Positions 14,202-20,583 of a DNA stretch of 22,668 nucleotides are shown here, piece by piece; within the stretch, counting starts at the first letter, position 1; each line of letters begins with the position of its first letter. The notes beneath the pieces were generated by a model. The model was not told the DNA's origin, did no database searches, and saw only the letters and a list, made by a program, of their open reading frames with translations. The stretch is from an uncultured Deinococcales bacterium (GTDB taxonomy: Bacteria; Deinococcota; Deinococci; Deinococcales; JAAFIG01), in NCBI GenBank assembly GCA_964244895.1, contig CAXTKV010000027.1, positions 1 through 22,668 of the forward strand, given 5' to 3'. A program made the position numbers and the translations under genes.

Positions 14202-14672
14202 GTGAAGAACGCCCTAGTCCTGCTGTTCGTACTATCCGGTTGCACCCCTGCATTTCAACCACAGAATTTTTCATATAGCGATCACATCTATAGAATTTCA
14301 TCACTGAGTGAAGGAAAAATGCGGGTTTCCAATTCCTTGTCTGATAAATGCAATGTAATTAACACCTCGGCCCGTAAAGTTGCAATTGAAAATGGTTTTG
14401 AATATATGGGCACATATGAAGGGCATTTTTTAGGAAGTTCGTTGGATACAATCGAATATCTGAATTATGCAATTCCACGCTTTACGCCTATAATTCAAAG
14501 TTCAATCCCACAATTTTCCTCCTGGAAGCCGTTGGAATATGGTTATTCTCGAGGCTATCCCCTTGATTTTCGTGATGGTCTTGGTTTGATGCTCGCATAC
14601 GTTATTGATGAAAAACATTCTGAGCTTTCTGGCAGCCGGATTTGTTTTTCTTATTCCTTCAAATATTCTTAA
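14202..14672 (+). CDS. Hypothetical lipoprotein, AT-rich gene
   Basis: MKNALVLLFVLSG-C lipobox; visibly lower GC than flanks; TAATTT 6 nt before GTG. Confidence 0.65.
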   Translation: MKNALVLLFVLSGCTPAFQPQNFSYSDHIYRISSLSEGKMRVSNSLSDKCNVINTSARKVAIENGFEYMGTYEGHFLGSSLDTIEYLNYAIPRFTPIIQSSIPQFSSWKPLEYGYSRGYPLDFRDGLGLMLAYVIDEKHSELSGSRICFSYSFKYS

Positions 14673-14758: not shown

Positions 14759-17700
14759 GTGCTCGGAATCCTGAACAAACTCTTCGATAACAACGCCAGG
14801 GACGTGACGCGCTTGCAGCGCGATGTCGTCACCAGGGTCAACGCTCTCGAACCGGAAGTGCAAAAAATTGAGGATCTGGCCGCCGAATTCGCCAAGTTGC
14901 GCGAACGCGTGCAGGGCGGGGAATCTCTGGATTCGGTCATGCCGGAAGCGTTCGCGCTGACGCGAGAAGCATCCGTCAGGACGCTCGGGATGCGGCATTT
15001 CGATGTGCAGTTGATCGGCGGGGCGGCTTTGCACGCGGGCCGGATCGCGGAAATGAAGACGGGCGAGGGCAAGACGCTGGTGGCCACGTTGGCGCTCGCG
15101 CTGAACGCGCTGGAGGGCAAAGGCGCGCACTTGGTCACGACCAACGATTACCTGGTCAAAGCGCAGGCGGAACAGATGGGTTTGATCTTCCGCACGCTGG
15201 GCTTGTCCGTCGGGATCATTCAGCAGCCATTGGATCCAGTATCCCGCAAAGCCGCTTACGCCTGCGATATCACGTACATCACGAACTCGGAACTGGGTTT
15301 CGATTACTTGCGCGACAACATGAGCATCAGCGCGGAACAGCTCGTGTTGCGCTCGGATTTTCCCTTGAATTACGCGATCATCGACGAGGTCGATAGCATC
15401 CTGATCGACGAGGCGCGCACGCCGCTGATCATCTCGGGGCCGTCTGAAAAATCGCCCAGCAATTACTACCTGATGGCCAAGCTCGTGCCGCAGCTCGAGA
15501 AGGGCGAACCGGTCGTGCCCGGTGACAAGAACCGTTCGGAACCGACCGGGGATTACACGGTCGATGAGAAGCAAAAACAGGTTCACCTGACGGAAAAAGG
15601 TATTGACACCGCAGAGCAGCTCCTGTCCATCGAGGGCGGGTTGTTCAGCACGGAGCACATGGAACTCGGGCACATGCTGATCAACGCGATCCGCGCCAAG
15701 GAGTTGTACAGCAAGGACAAGGATTACATCGTCGACGAAAAGGGTGAAGTCATCATCGTTGACGAGTTCACGGGCCGTCTGATGGCGGGACGGCGTTACG
15801 GCGACGGCATGCACCAGGCCATCGAAGCCAAGGAGGGCGTGACCATCGCGGGTGAAAACCAGACGTTGGCCACGATCACGTACCAGAATTTTTTCAGGTT
15901 GTATTCCAAGATCGGCGGCATGACGGGCACGGCCAAAACAGAGGAAAAGGAATTCATCGAACTGTACGGCGCGGACGTGCTGGTGATCCCGACCAACCTG
16001 CCGATGATCCGCAAGGACAACGAAGATGTCGTGTACCGCACCGAGATCGGCAAGTTCAAGGCCGTGATCGAAGAGATCGTGGAGCGTTACCAGACGGGCC
16101 AGCCCGTGCTGGTCGGCACGATCAGCATTGAAAAATCCGAATTCTTGTCCCGGATGCTTTCCGAACCCAACCGGTACGTGCAGTTCATCGAGGCCACGGC
16201 GGGCAAGGTGCTCTCGCAGTGCGTCAAGTTGGACGCGGCCAAACTGGAAAGCATCAACAAGCTCCTGAAGGACGCGGGTTCCCTGACGCTGGAAAAAATC
16301 GCGGAGGCCAAACCGTTGGTGCCCAAGAACGCGCTCGAGACCTTCGGGTATCTCGAGCGCGAGGTCAAAACGCTCTCCATGCTCCGCAAGGGCGTCAAGC
16401 ATCAGGTGCTGAACGCCAAGCAGCACGAGCGCGAGGCCGACATCGTGGCGCAGGCGGGGCGTTCGGGCACGGTCACGATCAGCACCAACATGGCGGGGCG
16501 CGGCACGGACATCAAGCTGGGCGGCAACGCGGAATTCGCGGCTTACCAGTACCTGGAGAAAAAAGGCTTGAACCGCTACGATGATTTCGTGGAGTTGTTC
16601 GTGACTTCCGCGATCCGCAACGACCTGGACACGGCCCGCAGCTTCATGGAAAAAATGCCGAAGCTGACCGAGGACGATGTCCAGGAGATCATCAAAACCC
16701 GCGAGGCGTTCAAGGACGACCACGAGAAGGTCAAGGAACTGGGCGGGTTGCACATCATGGGGACGGAACGCCACGAGTCCAGGCGCATCGACAACCAGTT
16801 GCGCGGGCGTTCGGGCCGTCAGGGCGACCCCGGCTCGAGCCGATACTACGTGTCCTTCGAGGATGACCTGATGCGCCTGTTCGCCAACGACCGGATCGTC
16901 GGGATGCTGGATCGGCTCGGCATGGATGATACGCAGCCCATCGAGGCGCGGATGGTCACGAACAGCATCGAGCGCGCGCAAAAACGCGTCGAGGATCGGA
17001 ATTTCTCTATTCGCAAGCAGCTTCTGGAATTCGACAACGTGGCCAGCAAGCAGCGCGAGATCATCTACAAGCAGCGCCGCGAGGTGTTGTTGGGCACGGA
17101 CGAGCAGGTCGCGGAACTGGTGGAAACCATGGTCGGCGATTTTGTGGAGGGTCAGGCCACGCTCAAACTGACCGGCAACGATTCCCACGAGTGGGACGTG
17201 GCGCAACTGCGCGCCAGCTTGGCGGACGCCATGCCGCCCTTCGAGGATTTCGATTTTGAAAGTCTGCGCGATCTGAAATTCGACGACGCCCGGCAGCGCC
17301 TGATGGATAAGGCCGCCGACGCCTTCGAGGGGCGCGAAAAGGAATTCCCCGCCGAGCTCTGGCCGCAACTCGAGCGTTTCGTGGTCTTGCAGATCGTGGA
17401 TCAATACTGGAAAGAGCACCTGAACAGCATGGAAGTGCTGCGCCAGGGCATTTTCTTGCGCGGTTACGGCCAGAAAGACCCGTTCGTGGAGTACAAGTTT
17501 GAAGCCACCAATTTGTTCAACGAGATGATCGAGGGCATCAAGCTGGATGTCACCAAGTACCTGTTCCGCCTGCAGGTCAATTACGATCAGCCCGCCGTGC
17601 CCGCTCAGGTTCAGGATGCGCCCGAAAGCCTCGAGGATGCGCCGCAACCGCAAGCCGCCAACCCGTTCGCGCCTTCTGCCAACCCGTTCATCCGTTCGGG

Positions 17701-17779
17701 TGGCGCGCAGAGCCGCATCCCGAAGCTCTCGCGGCAGGAACGCCGCAAAATGGAGCGCGAGACGAAGAAAAAGAAATAA
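14759..17779 (+). CDS. secA: Preprotein translocase ATPase SecA
   Basis: EMKTGEGKT, IIDEVDSILIDEARTPLIISG, IVDEFTGR, GMTGTA, TNMAGRGTDIKLGG, GTERHESRRIDNQLRGRSGRQGDPG. Confidence 0.98.
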   Translation: MLGILNKLFDNNARDVTRLQRDVVTRVNALEPEVQKIEDLAAEFAKLRERVQGGESLDSVMPEAFALTREASVRTLGMRHFDVQLIGGAALHAGRIAEMKTGEGKTLVATLALALNALEGKGAHLVTTNDYLVKAQAEQMGLIFRTLGLSVGIIQQPLDPVSRKAAYACDITYITNSELGFDYLRDNMSISAEQLVLRSDFPLNYAIIDEVDSILIDEARTPLIISGPSEKSPSNYYLMAKLVPQLEKGEPVVPGDKNRSEPTGDYTVDEKQKQVHLTEKGIDTAEQLLSIEGGLFSTEHMELGHMLINAIRAKELYSKDKDYIVDEKGEVIIVDEFTGRLMAGRRYGDGMHQAIEAKEGVTIAGENQTLATITYQNFFRLYSKIGGMTGTAKTEEKEFIELYGADVLVIPTNLPMIRKDNEDVVYRTEIGKFKAVIEEIVERYQTGQPVLVGTISIEKSEFLSRMLSEPNRYVQFIEATAGKVLSQCVKLDAAKLESINKLLKDAGSLTLEKIAEAKPLVPKNALETFGYLEREVKTLSMLRKGVKHQVLNAKQHEREADIVAQAGRSGTVTISTNMAGRGTDIKLGGNAEFAAYQYLEKKGLNRYDDFVELFVTSAIRNDLDTARSFMEKMPKLTEDDVQEIIKTREAFKDDHEKVKELGGLHIMGTERHESRRIDNQLRGRSGRQGDPGSSRYYVSFEDDLMRLFANDRIVGMLDRLGMDDTQPIEARMVTNSIERAQKRVEDRNFSIRKQLLEFDNVASKQREIIYKQRREVLLGTDEQVAELVETMVGDFVEGQATLKLTGNDSHEWDVAQLRASLADAMPPFEDFDFESLRDLKFDDARQRLMDKAADAFEGREKEFPAELWPQLERFVVLQIVDQYWKEHLNSMEVLRQGIFLRGYGQKDPFVEYKFEATNLFNEMIEGIKLDVTKYLFRLQVNYDQPAVPAQVQDAPESLEDAPQPQAANPFAPSANPFIRSGGAQSRIPKLSRQERRKMERETKKKK

Positions 17780-17794
17780 GTTCTCGAGTACGAA

Positions 17795-17827
17795 GATGCG
17801 GGCGGGGGAGACCTCGCCCGCATTTTT
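17795..17827 (+). terminator. Intrinsic terminator of secA
   Basis: ATGCGGGCGGGG-GAGA-CCTCGCCCGCAT followed by TTTT. Confidence 0.85.
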
Positions 17828-17834
17828 GTCCCAG

Positions 17835-17882
17835 GAACACCGTCCAGGACGCAAATAAAGTTATGCGTGCTGGACGGCGCTT
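17835..17882. repeat. Palindromic repeat copy 8 (left edge of the AT-rich TA island)
   Basis: GAACACCGTCCAGGACGCA ... TGCGTGCTGGACGGCGCTT. Confidence 0.85.
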
Positions 17883-17905: not shown

Positions 17906-18178
17906 TTAGCTTTTTCGAGCCTTTGGCTTTGGATTCACTTTTGCGGCATCCGCAGTAATACTAGACGGTTTTTCCGCTTTTTGTAAACCCAGTTTGACTA
18001 TCGGGACTATGGCCGCTGGTACAAGATTTTCAGGAGAATTTGGATCGTTTCCGATATTCGCGGCACCAATTCCAAACTCAACATAAAGTGCCCAAAGTCC
18101 CTCGTGTATTCCTTGGTGTCGGATTAGTGCTTCAACTACTTCCTTATGTGTAAATACGTAGTTAGCAGGTTCTCCCAT
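17906..18178 (-). CDS. Hypothetical 90-aa protein, third gene of the hicAB operon
   Basis: ATG 1 nt after the hicB stop (TAAgATG); globular-looking sequence FTHKEVVEALI..GIHEGLWALYVEFGIGAANIG..PAAIVPIVKLGL; no family recognised. Confidence 0.75.
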   Translation of the reverse strand: MGEPANYVFTHKEVVEALIRHQGIHEGLWALYVEFGIGAANIGNDPNSPENLVPAAIVPIVKLGLQKAEKPSSITADAAKVNPKPKARKS

Positions 18179-18179
18179 C

Positions 18180-18677
18180 TTAATTCACATCCGATCTGAG
18201 CCTGTTTGCTGCGGTAGAATCAGTTGTTATGGTAAAAGCTCTTGCTTCAGTTAGACTTGTTGCAGCATTTGAGGTTGCAAGTACGCGGTAAATGCTTCGA
18301 TTAGTTTCAGTGCGAGCTCTTGATTCGCCTACGGATTCGGCAAGAGCAGTCACGATAAACTGATTGAGGCTGATGCCATCGCGTTTAGCAGCTTGAGTAG
18401 CTTTTCTGTGCAGACTACGTGGAAGTCGAAGTGCAACTTTACCGCTATGACTTTCTTCGTTAGTTGGTTGCGGAATTTCTTGGCCAAGTCGAAGAGCAGC
18501 TTCAATCCACGATGTGGCAGCTTCCTCAAGAAGTACATACGTTTCCGACGGTGTATCTCCTTGAGTTACGCAACCTGGGAATTCGCGGATCAATCCCGTG
18601 AAGGTTGCTGTTTCTAGGTCAGGGATGACTTCTCGCGCATAGGGGAGCTTGAGGTAATCTTTTGCACTTTGCTTCAC
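18180..18677 (-). CDS. hicB: HicB-family antitoxin (partial RNase H fold + RHH) with a 48-aa C-terminal extension
   Basis: YLKLPY...FPGCVTQGDT..E...LEEA...WIE...GQEIPQP...SGKVALRLPRSLH...AKRDGISLNQF; AGGAGG RBS; GTG overlaps the hicA stop. Confidence 0.88.
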   Translation of the reverse strand: MKQSAKDYLKLPYAREVIPDLETATFTGLIREFPGCVTQGDTPSETYVLLEEAATSWIEAALRLGQEIPQPTNEESHSGKVALRLPRSLHRKATQAAKRDGISLNQFIVTALAESVGESRARTETNRSIYRVLATSNAATSLTEARAFTITTDSTAANRLRSDVN

Positions 18678-18988
18678 ATCGTGTCCTCCTCTTGGGACGC
18701 TTGTGCGTCAGATTCAACTTCTATCTCCCAGCATTCTAAATCTGATTCAAGTTGGTCGAGAATGCTTCTTGCAGTAATTTTATTTAGCGGTGTGGAATGA
18801 TTAGGAATACTTACTGGGCGGAGTTCGGGGAATTCAGGGTTGATAAAAGTCGGATGCTTACCACGACCTGGGTCAAGCACCCGACCCAGGCGTCCCGCAA
18901 ACCGCTCCATGATGCTACTTTTGATGCTGCCAGCTGCTCGCAGTCGCTCGAGTTCATCACGAAGCTTTTTCAGTTTAGCAGGTGTCAT
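18674..18988 (-). CDS. hicA: HicA-like toxin (dsRBD-fold RNase); probable start ATG 18988
   Basis: GRGKHPTF...PVSIPNH...LNKITARSIL follows the HicA G-x-H ... IP-x-H ... IL pattern; directly upstream of hicB with ATGTGA overlap. Confidence 0.72.
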   Translation of the reverse strand: MTPAKLKKLRDELERLRAAGSIKSSIMERFAGRLGRVLDPGRGKHPTFINPEFPELRPVSIPNHSTPLNKITARSILDQLESDLECWEIEVESDAQASQEEDTM

Positions 18989-19031
18989 GATATCACTGGC
19001 GATATCATACACATTGTAAAGAAATCATCAA
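18987..19031 (-). promoter_or_regulatory. hicAB promoter (TTGATG-N16-TATGAT) overlapped by operator inverted repeat ATGATATC-N6-GATATCAT
   Basis: Perfect 8-bp inverted repeat 18987-18994 / 19001-19008 overlapping the -10 (19009-19004) and the start codon; -35 at 19031-19026. Confidence 0.65.
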
Positions 19032-19221: not shown

Positions 19222-20583
19222 ATGAGACCGTACAAACCGGAGCGGTATTTCTACCGCGATGCCGCACACCTGCTGCGCCGCGCGGGTTTCGGCGGAAATC
19301 CCACTGAGGTCGAGGCGTACCGCAAGCTCGGGCCGGAGGAAGCCGCCGAGAAACTCCTGACGTTTTCTGATGATGACGGTACGGACGCCAGCCTGTTCGA
19401 CTGGCGCGCCGCGTACAACGGCACGAACGCCGGGAGCGCCATGCCGACGCTGGCGGCCTTGTGGTTCCACCGCATGATCGCCACCACGCAGCCTTTGAAG
19501 GAAAAGCTGGCACTTTTCTGGCACGGGCATTTTGCGACTGGACGCGACAAGGTCGACAACGCCTTCATGATGGCCGCGCAGTACGAGATGTTCCGCACCA
19601 GCGGCCTGAACAAGTTCGCAGATCTCGTGCTCGAGGTGTCCCGCGATCCGGCCATGCTGCGCTACCTCGACAACGACAAGAACGCCAAGGGTCACCCGAA
19701 CGAGAATTACGCGCGGGAACTGATGGAACTCTTCACCATCGGGGTTCACGCGGGGTACACGGAAAAGGACGTGCAGGAATCCGCTCGGGCCTTCACGGGT
19801 TGGACGCGCACCGCCGTCGGTCAGGGCAGCCCCGAGCAGAAATTTATCTTTCAGGCCAAGAACCACGACGATGGCGAGAAGACCGTGCTGGGGCAGACGG
19901 GCAACTGGGATGGTCACGACATCGTGCGGATCGTGACGGAACACCCGGCCTGCGCGCGCTTCATGACGGCCAAACTGTGGCGATTTTTCGTGAACGAAAA
20001 ACCCTCGGACGCCACCCAAGATGAACTGAGCGCGTTCTGGACGCAATCGGGCGGTGACGTGCGCGCGGTGCTGAAACTGATCTTCTCGAGCGAGGAATTT
20101 TACGCCAGCCAGAACCGTTTCGCGCTGGTCAAATCGCCCGTGGAATACGTGGTCGGCGCGATCCGCGCGACCGGAGCGCAGTTGCAGCCCGAGCACGTCA
20201 TGGCGCTGAACAACCTGACCACCAACATGACCCAGACGCTGTTCTACCCGCCGAACGTCAAGGGCTGGGACGGTGGCGACGACTGGCTGGCGGATTTCAC
20301 GGTGCTGAACCGCCTGAATTTCGTGGCCGGGCTGGTCAGCGGCAACCTGCCCGCGCAGAAAAAATCCCCGGATCAGCAAATTCCGAAGGTCGCGCTGAAC
20401 CTGCCCGTCGGTCGTGACGCTGCCCAGACCCTCGATCTCGTCGGTCGGGCGTTGAACGGCGAAACGCCCATCGGCGAGATGCGCGCCTCGATGCAAGCCC
20501 TCGCCACCGGAGCCGTGAATGCGGAGATGGCGAAACGTTTGGCGCATTTCGCGATGATCTCGCCACAGTTTCATCTGGCGTGA
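19222..20583 (+). CDS. DUF1800 family protein
   Basis: HLLRRAGFG, LKEKLALFWHGHFAT, PAMLRYLDN, PNENYARELMELFTIG, ARAFTGW, KSPVE, PPNVKGW; AGGAGG RBS. Confidence 0.92.
   Translation: MRPYKPERYFYRDAAHLLRRAGFGGNPTEVEAYRKLGPEEAAEKLLTFSDDDGTDASLFDWRAAYNGTNAGSAMPTLAALWFHRMIATTQPLKEKLALFWHGHFATGRDKVDNAFMMAAQYEMFRTSGLNKFADLVLEVSRDPAMLRYLDNDKNAKGHPNENYARELMELFTIGVHAGYTEKDVQESARAFTGWTRTAVGQGSPEQKFIFQAKNHDDGEKTVLGQTGNWDGHDIVRIVTEHPACARFMTAKLWRFFVNEKPSDATQDELSAFWTQSGGDVRAVLKLIFSSEEFYASQNRFALVKSPVEYVVGAIRATGAQLQPEHVMALNNLTTNMTQTLFYPPNVKGWDGGDDWLADFTVLNRLNFVAGLVSGNLPAQKKSPDQQIPKVALNLPVGRDAAQTLDLVGRALNGETPIGEMRASMQALATGAVNAEMAKRLAHFAMISPQFHLA

Follow-up and report, generated by a model that had tools for sequence, protein, structure and literature searches.

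A TAC-like hicA–hicB–orf3 operon from a Deinococcales bacterium: an unnamed gene family, not recognisably SecB, in the chaperone slot

Known tripartite systems

The closest described systems are the toxin–antitoxin–chaperone (TAC) modules, and among them the HicAB–SecB type, with a chaperone addiction that depends on the tail, is established (PMC5105189). In SecB-type TAC the C-terminal tail makes the antitoxin unstable and is the part bound by the chaperone. Once the tail is removed the module again works with two genes, and a phage tail protein that competes for the chaperone can set off the toxin (PMC5105189, 10.1101/2024.02.24.581848). As described there, Mmet-TAC (the HicAB–SecB module of Methylomonas methanica) and HigBA1–Rv1957 of M. 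tuberculosis resemble the orf3 loci presented here in gene order, in an RHH-type HicB with a variable C-terminal extension, in sparse horizontal spread and in the sharing of one third-gene family by several antitoxin families (PMC5105189, PMC3581621). They differ in the third gene, which encodes 90 aa in our locus and 144–196 aa in the SecB-like genes found here, with no likeness in sequence or profile, and in the tails, which are Thr/Ser/Asn-rich at orf3 loci and aromatic and acidic in SecB-type TAC. HigBAC and CmdTAC also have a tailed antitoxin and a coupled third gene, and their sensing-by-competition model is the template for the trigger that we propose for orf3; they are, however, prophage-borne, SecB-dependent and experimentally defensive, whereas orf3 loci are rarely viral or near defence genes (10.1101/2024.02.24.581848).

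The 2013 TAC survey (PMC3581621) searched outward from the SecB chaperone, and a search that starts from the chaperone is blind to orf3 loci. An October 2026 preprint, too, names SecB where it treats third components of the chaperone type in type II modules. In the main texts of the open-access literature, all TAC systems found rely on a SecB homologue, and no non-SecB gene in the TAC slot was found.

Third genes of other kinds are coupled to type II pairs as well. The third component of PasABC is a small enhancer and that of PaaR2-type modules a repressor. We know of no link to an antitoxin tail for the third components of PasABC, PaaR2–PaaA2–ParE2 or ParA-TA. All three have a type II pair plus a third gene, as our locus does, the third component of the ternary ParA-TA systems being described as an NTPase-sensor (10.64898/2026.10.19.760177), and Orf3 matches none of these third components in the libraries searched. 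Finally, two-gene hicAB modules share with our locus the domains of toxin and antitoxin and, probably, autorepression, and have neither tail nor third gene; the terms 'chaperone', 'third gene' and 'C-terminal extension' are absent from the main text of the survey that describes them (10.1101/2023.12.08.570793).

The operon and its genes

The window, a stretch of 22,668 nucleotides of contig CAXTKV010000027.1, carries hicA, hicB and orf3 on its minus strand as three coupled ORFs in a low-GC insert (Table 1), flanked by secA (14759–17779, plus strand) and a DUF1800 gene (19222–20583, plus strand). The tight packing of the three genes described in the first-pass annotation was verified: hicA and hicB share a 4-nt overlap (ATGTGA), with AGGAGG at 18690–18685, and hicB and orf3 are joined as TAAgATG, so that all three genes form a single coupled operon, as in TAC. 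The AT-rich island reported at the same time is equally clear, since the operon has a GC content of 46.4% against 62.7% for the genome, a value of 47.5% or below occurs in 0.4% of 4,394 equal-size windows, and GC3 is 0.31–0.42 in the operon genes and 0.81–0.82 in the flanking genes. No such module was seen at the secA end in three genomes of the same family, and the orf3 profile matches 2 of 301 host-phylum genomes, the studied genome included, which makes it likely that the cassette is a horizontal insert. Its occurrence is patchy across the genome sets searched (2/301, 1/401 and 3/401 genomes).

Table 1. Features of the hicA–hicB–orf3 operon (positions in the window)
Feature	Position	Strand	Basis and remarks
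hicA-like toxin gene	18674..18988	-	104 aa from ATG; PF07927, PHROG, alignment
hicB antitoxin gene	18180..18677	-	165 aa: HicB-like N-domain, RHH and tail; PF05534, PF15919
HicB C-terminal tail, residues 113-165	18183..18341	-	Thr/Ser/Asn-rich, unconserved; candidate chaperone-addiction-like element
orf3	17906..18178	-	90 aa, unnamed family in TAC chaperone slot; predicted helix and long beta-hairpin, likely oligomeric
Candidate sigma-70-type promoter TTGATG-16-TATGAT	19004..19031	-	9/12 match; position fits operon start
Inverted repeat, likely operator for HicB ribbon-helix-helix domain	18987..19008	.	8-bp arms, 6-bp spacer

The start of hicA was placed at the ATG, where its homologues align, and not at a GTG at 19012. 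The product matches the Pfam HicA_toxin family (PF07927) with an E-value of 1.2e-5 and 25.8 bits, slightly under the cut-off of 27, and a PHROG toxin family with an E-value of 2.7e-6. It carries an extra N-terminal helix and two histidines, His45 (in G-K-H) and His64, of which His45 fills the G-x-H position that we take to be the motif of the dsRBD-like HicA toxins. A separate observation is that 19 of 30 aligned orf3-linked HicA proteins (e.g. at loci L006, L008 and L033) have Glu at the His45 position, with His64 nearly invariant; this subfamily may use a different catalysis or be partly inactive.

HicB combines a HicB-like N-terminal domain with an RHH domain, and both of its Pfam matches are over the cut-off (PF05534, residues 68–112, E 5.8e-12; PF15919, E 4.4e-7). 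The tail that follows measures 53 residues when counted from the end of the Pfam domain and 48 when counted from the conserved G117, the latter agreeing with the 48 extra residues given previously.

The operon had also been credited with its own promoter and operator, and the second part of this claim is the better supported. Taken alone, the promoter match is at chance level, two such matches being found where 1.7 are expected. The operator is a perfect 8-bp palindrome, ATGATATC-N6-GATATCAT at 19008..18987, which covers the -10 box and the hicA start, and a pattern derived from it recurs 5' of hicA in 6 of 55 other loci, where shuffling gives 0.055 on average and 1 at most. HicB is likely to repress its own operon at this palindrome.

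Two features of the flanks may be recorded here. Past orf3, at 17830–17880, lies a palindromic repeat for which short BLAST gives 140 matches in its own genome, counting both strands; it is a dispersed element of REP-like type and adjoins the secA hairpin at 17790–17829. A second low-GC ORF of 156 aa (14202–14672), with a lipoprotein-like N-terminus by eye and no Pfam match, is found directly upstream of secA, beside a Uma2-family gene.

Partners of orf3 and of long-tailed antitoxins

Patterns built from orf3 only yielded 112 loci, several of them near-duplicates, from 30 genomes, two viral contigs and metagenomes (the best 80 of 81 matches); the named hosts include Chloroflexota, Acidobacteriota, Thermodesulfobacteriota and Pseudomonadota. 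Four loci had no upstream DNA, and in the remaining 108 a script chose the upstream ORF, except for six chosen by hand. The association of orf3 with TA loci, on which the first-pass reading depended, is plain from these: directly upstream of orf3, 103 of the 108 have a tail-extended, antitoxin-type gene by Pfam, namely 76 HicB, 25 HTH (three of them below curated cut-offs) and two BrnA. The five upstream ORFs without a Pfam assignment appear by eye to be three cut or frameshifted HicBs, one tailed small membrane-like protein and one ORF without a recognisable partner, and a recognisable antitoxin is missing at two loci (L097 and L100). Two extra homologues from a whole-genome profile search (L115 and L219) follow a tailed HicB-type gene, again by eye.

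All 77 orf3-linked HicBs, the studied one included, have tails of 53–100 aa after the RHH domain, as compared with 40 or fewer in 54 controls (see below), and a variable extension of this kind is a further feature of TAC. The two BrnA proteins have extensions of 70 and 75 residues, and the HTH proteins of 51–143 residues, about 35 of which are conserved. The toxins are also of several kinds: the candidate toxin ORFs scanned (51 of 95) comprise 15 HicA, two BrnT, one Gp49, one DUF6932, one weak unrelated match and 31 without Pfam match, many of which align with HicA or belong to an unnamed family of ~160 aa. As both the antitoxin and toxin families differ between loci, the common feature of orf3 loci is the tail and not a domain. 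The spacing between antitoxin and orf3 lies between -70 and +45 nt in 105 of 108 loci, and the order and overlap are fixed across phyla.

An overlap of exactly 8 nt is found in 35 of the 108 loci. It fits M-[A/P]-E, the conserved N-terminus of Orf3, and forces antitoxin ends such as NA, HA, NG and YG, and these C-terminal dipeptides therefore need not be degrons. Members of the ~160-aa toxin-like family (L007:4050-5008, L011, L019–L021, L023, L025, L032 and others) are RelE-like by eye and are paired, upstream of orf3, with an HTH antitoxin that has a conserved extension, GP(I/V)...F..CW; the family has no Pfam match, and the two members compared with PADLOC and PHROG matched neither.

The relationship was then viewed from the antitoxin. 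A tail-less HicB core profile, built from the orf3-linked HicBs, was run against 453 genomes of three phyla and 90 HicB loci were examined, of which 72 were kept after 17 partial matches and one contig-cut gene were dropped. Tails of at least 43 aa are present in 18 of the 72, and the other 54 have tails of 40 aa or fewer. The gene after the 18 long-tailed HicBs is orf3 in three cases, SecB-like in seven, DUF6941 in four (two near-identical) and another gene in four. One of the three families is thus next in 14 of 18 long-tailed and 0 of 54 short-tailed HicBs, a contrast whose Fisher value of 1e-11 overstates the case because the cut at 43 aa was set with the data already in view and the loci, which include near-duplicates, are not independent. 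In the short-tailed set orf3 was excluded by profile at all 54 loci, and SecB and DUF6941 by inspection of the downstream ORF, 13 of these ORFs being compared with Pfam as well.

Three of the seven SecB-like third genes match Pfam SecB, one motif is common to all seven, and a profile of the set finds the M. tuberculosis TAC chaperone Rv1957 (5MTW) with an E-value of 1.6e-4. The same profile has no match in the 112 orf3 loci, 80 of which have at least 500 nt downstream, and a DUF6941 profile matches one of them. Given the 14 of 18 against 0 of 54 and these profile results, Orf3, SecB and DUF6941 behave as alternatives to one another in a single slot that is linked to the antitoxin tail. DUF6941 (PF22091), encoded directly after long-tailed HicBs at L125:911-1330, L131:905-1321, L132:1980-2396 and L193:866-1285, seems from its position to be a third occupant and a second candidate for a non-SecB tail partner; no mention of it was found in the open-access literature. 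L130:2065-2493 and L164:873-1280 may hold further occupants: at each, a long-tailed HicB is followed at short distance by a gene (142 and 135 aa, respectively) for which Pfam gives no convincing match.

The tails themselves cannot be aligned beyond one helix. Thr, Ser and Asn make up 23–25% of orf3-linked tails and 14% of SecB-linked tails, and aromatic residues 7–8% and 11%, respectively (4.9% in the studied HicB); as orf3-linked tails are the poorer in aromatics, the SecB pocket mechanism is not directly transferable. A six-column motif centred on [T/R/S]-A-x-T exceeded five shuffles in 60 HicB tails and, once learned on HicB tails, carried over to 25 HTH/BrnA-type tails, with a score that none of 500 shuffles reached, and not to 12 SecB/DUF6941/other tails. 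Single patterns did not rise above the shuffled maximum, the motif did not reappear when width or cut point was changed or when it was learned in the opposite direction, and the distal tail of the studied HicB has no strong site; we regard the motif as a weak lead only.

The Orf3 family and its possible function

Orf3 has 79 close matches, itself included, and its family extends to 1,070 clusters at 50% identity (E 0.001); orf3 is a genuine gene, one of a large family without a name. The possibility, raised at first pass, that it belongs to an already characterised family found no support in the libraries searched: 150 aligned members gave no match to Pfam or NCBIfam, Orf3 none to PADLOC, and Orf3 with four relatives none to PHROG. 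Its profile has no match among PDB sequences (best E 0.56), a protein atlas search returned unnamed clusters only, and longer fused forms were absent from 7,999 candidates, which is weak evidence. The absence of a SecB motif, remarked on earlier, extends to the sequence and profile comparisons. Profile–profile alignment (hhalign) gave a probability of 0.2% against the SecB-like third genes and 0.1% against DUF6941, the helix motif of the SecB-like genes is absent from the Orf3 consensus, and the host genome (91% complete) has no SecB match. The third gene being no homologue of SecB (PF02556) by these comparisons, the locus is not filed as a TAC member. Judged by gene neighbourhood, namely the linkage to tailed antitoxins and the slot shared with SecB-like genes, Orf3 fills the TAC chaperone slot without being recognisably SecB, and by all genomic tests run the module is TAC-like, real and conserved, a variant of TAC-type systems.

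The AlphaFold2 model of the Orf3 monomer (pLDDT 92.8, pTM 0.71) has a helix at 11–22, long strands at 28–42 and 53–67 and a short strand at 75–77, in keeping with the helix and beta-prone segments read from the sequence beforehand. Co-variation pairs 34–62 and 30–68 support the hairpin; the off-register pairs 35–56, 35–54, 27–54 and 29–54 are weak, involve near-invariant columns and may be inter-chain. Fold searches with the monomer gave no match, a result still compatible with a SecB fold. A natural protein of 637 aa, P0179, ends in two tandem Orf3 domains, both modelled with pLDDT ~90 and with longer continuous strands, the alignment rows covering the second copy only. The tandem fold suggests an Orf3 dimer and, as the output gives no contacts, falls short of proof; together with the co-variation it makes an oligomeric Orf3 likely. 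The regions of P0179 before the Orf3 domains are unrelated and poorly modelled, and the protein may be a gene-calling artefact. One natural HicB–tail–Orf3 fusion, P0090, was also found, a single sequence and possibly a gene-calling error. In the orf3 tree the partner types interleave (14 changes), but as 53 of 85 branches lack resolution the tree is compatible with one origin per type, and the interleaving is therefore not used as evidence.

By analogy with TAC, we consider it probable (about 0.65) that an Orf3 oligomer does the job of SecB with a different scaffold, binding the tail and so keeping HicB stable and HicA neutralised; the equivalence of slots makes this the most economical reading. 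Orf3 would oligomerise, as the tandem duplicate and co-variation suggest, and would bind the variable C-terminal tail of HicB, presumably by beta-strand addition. HicB, which we infer to depend on Orf3, would thereby be maintained in a folded, stable form that holds the HicA ribonuclease in check. Loss of Orf3, or its competitive occupation by, for example, a phage protein, would by analogy release HicA and stop growth. A broader version is put forward tentatively, in which SecB, the Orf3 family and DUF6941 would be at least three unrelated solutions to chaperone addiction. On this view Orf3 would be an oligomeric beta-hairpin protein with a fold not yet described; it would recognise tails rich in Thr and Ala, work with HicAB, BrnTA, HigBA-like and nucleotidyltransferase modules alike, and detect intruding proteins when they compete for its tail groove.

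We think it unlikely that Orf3 binds the tail and works against the antitoxin, as a protease adaptor or signal-gated trigger. The linkage data give a tail–partner relation and not its sign, which leaves room for such a role, but translational coupling to the antitoxin would supply the activator constitutively, and the SecB-like chaperone, the other occupant of the slot, is protective in the systems described (PMC5105189; 10.1101/2024.02.24.581848). It also appears improbable that Orf3 derives from SecB by extreme divergence and shortening, with a dimer that restores a SecB-like sheet, in which case the locus would be an ordinary TAC with an unrecognised mini-chaperone. The slot and antitoxin families are those of SecB-TAC, each chain has two long strands and a helix, and the tandem is confidently folded, the matches listed in its fold searches all falling on another domain of that protein; this is set against the lack of any Pfam or NCBIfam match among the 150 members, the profile–profile result and the missing helix motif.

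More doubtful is a tail-independent third regulatory subunit, a co-repressor or neutralisation enhancer of the kind found in PasC/PaaR2-type modules. The small size of Orf3, the basic C-terminus of many members and the tight co-transcription would fit, but Orf3 matches no DNA-binding family in the libraries searched, its RHH, HTH and BrnA partners have no common domain, and the tail correlates with the presence of a third gene. That orf3 is a functionally unlinked passenger stabilised by addiction modules is very improbable, for although the cassette is mobile and patchy, orf3 follows none of the 54 short-tailed HicBs, almost never occurs without an antitoxin and keeps its order and overlap across phyla.

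If the chaperone reading is right, an unrelated 90-aa protein in the SecB slot would be a case of convergent evolution of chaperone-gated toxins, and the family, with over a thousand clusters, a new family of small chaperones. The loci would also provide a rule for discovery, to look downstream of tailed antitoxins, which already flags DUF6941, and the compact pair of tail and binder could serve as a switchable stability tag.

A possible role in phage defence, suggested in the first-pass annotation by analogy with SecB-type TAC, drew no support from the neighbourhoods of 32 orf3 loci. From these loci 118 flanking ORFs were extracted and 91 scanned, with no background control; housekeeping genes predominate, alongside which six transposases, two methyltransferases and a single capsid gene were seen, and three of the six PADLOC matches are housekeeping look-alikes. 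The 91 ORFs do not place orf3 among defence genes or prophages, and viral contigs supplied only two of the 112 loci. tRNA genes occur in 12 of 44 orf3 loci, a figure without background control.

Two loci have unusual partners. At L081:624-1879 orf3 is preceded by a DUF6932 gene (nucleotidyltransferase-like by eye) paired with an HTH protein that has a 142-aa tail. At L097:220-835 orf3 follows the small membrane-like protein noted above, whose tail is Ser/Thr/Ala-rich, hinting that the tail–partner pair can gate other effectors.
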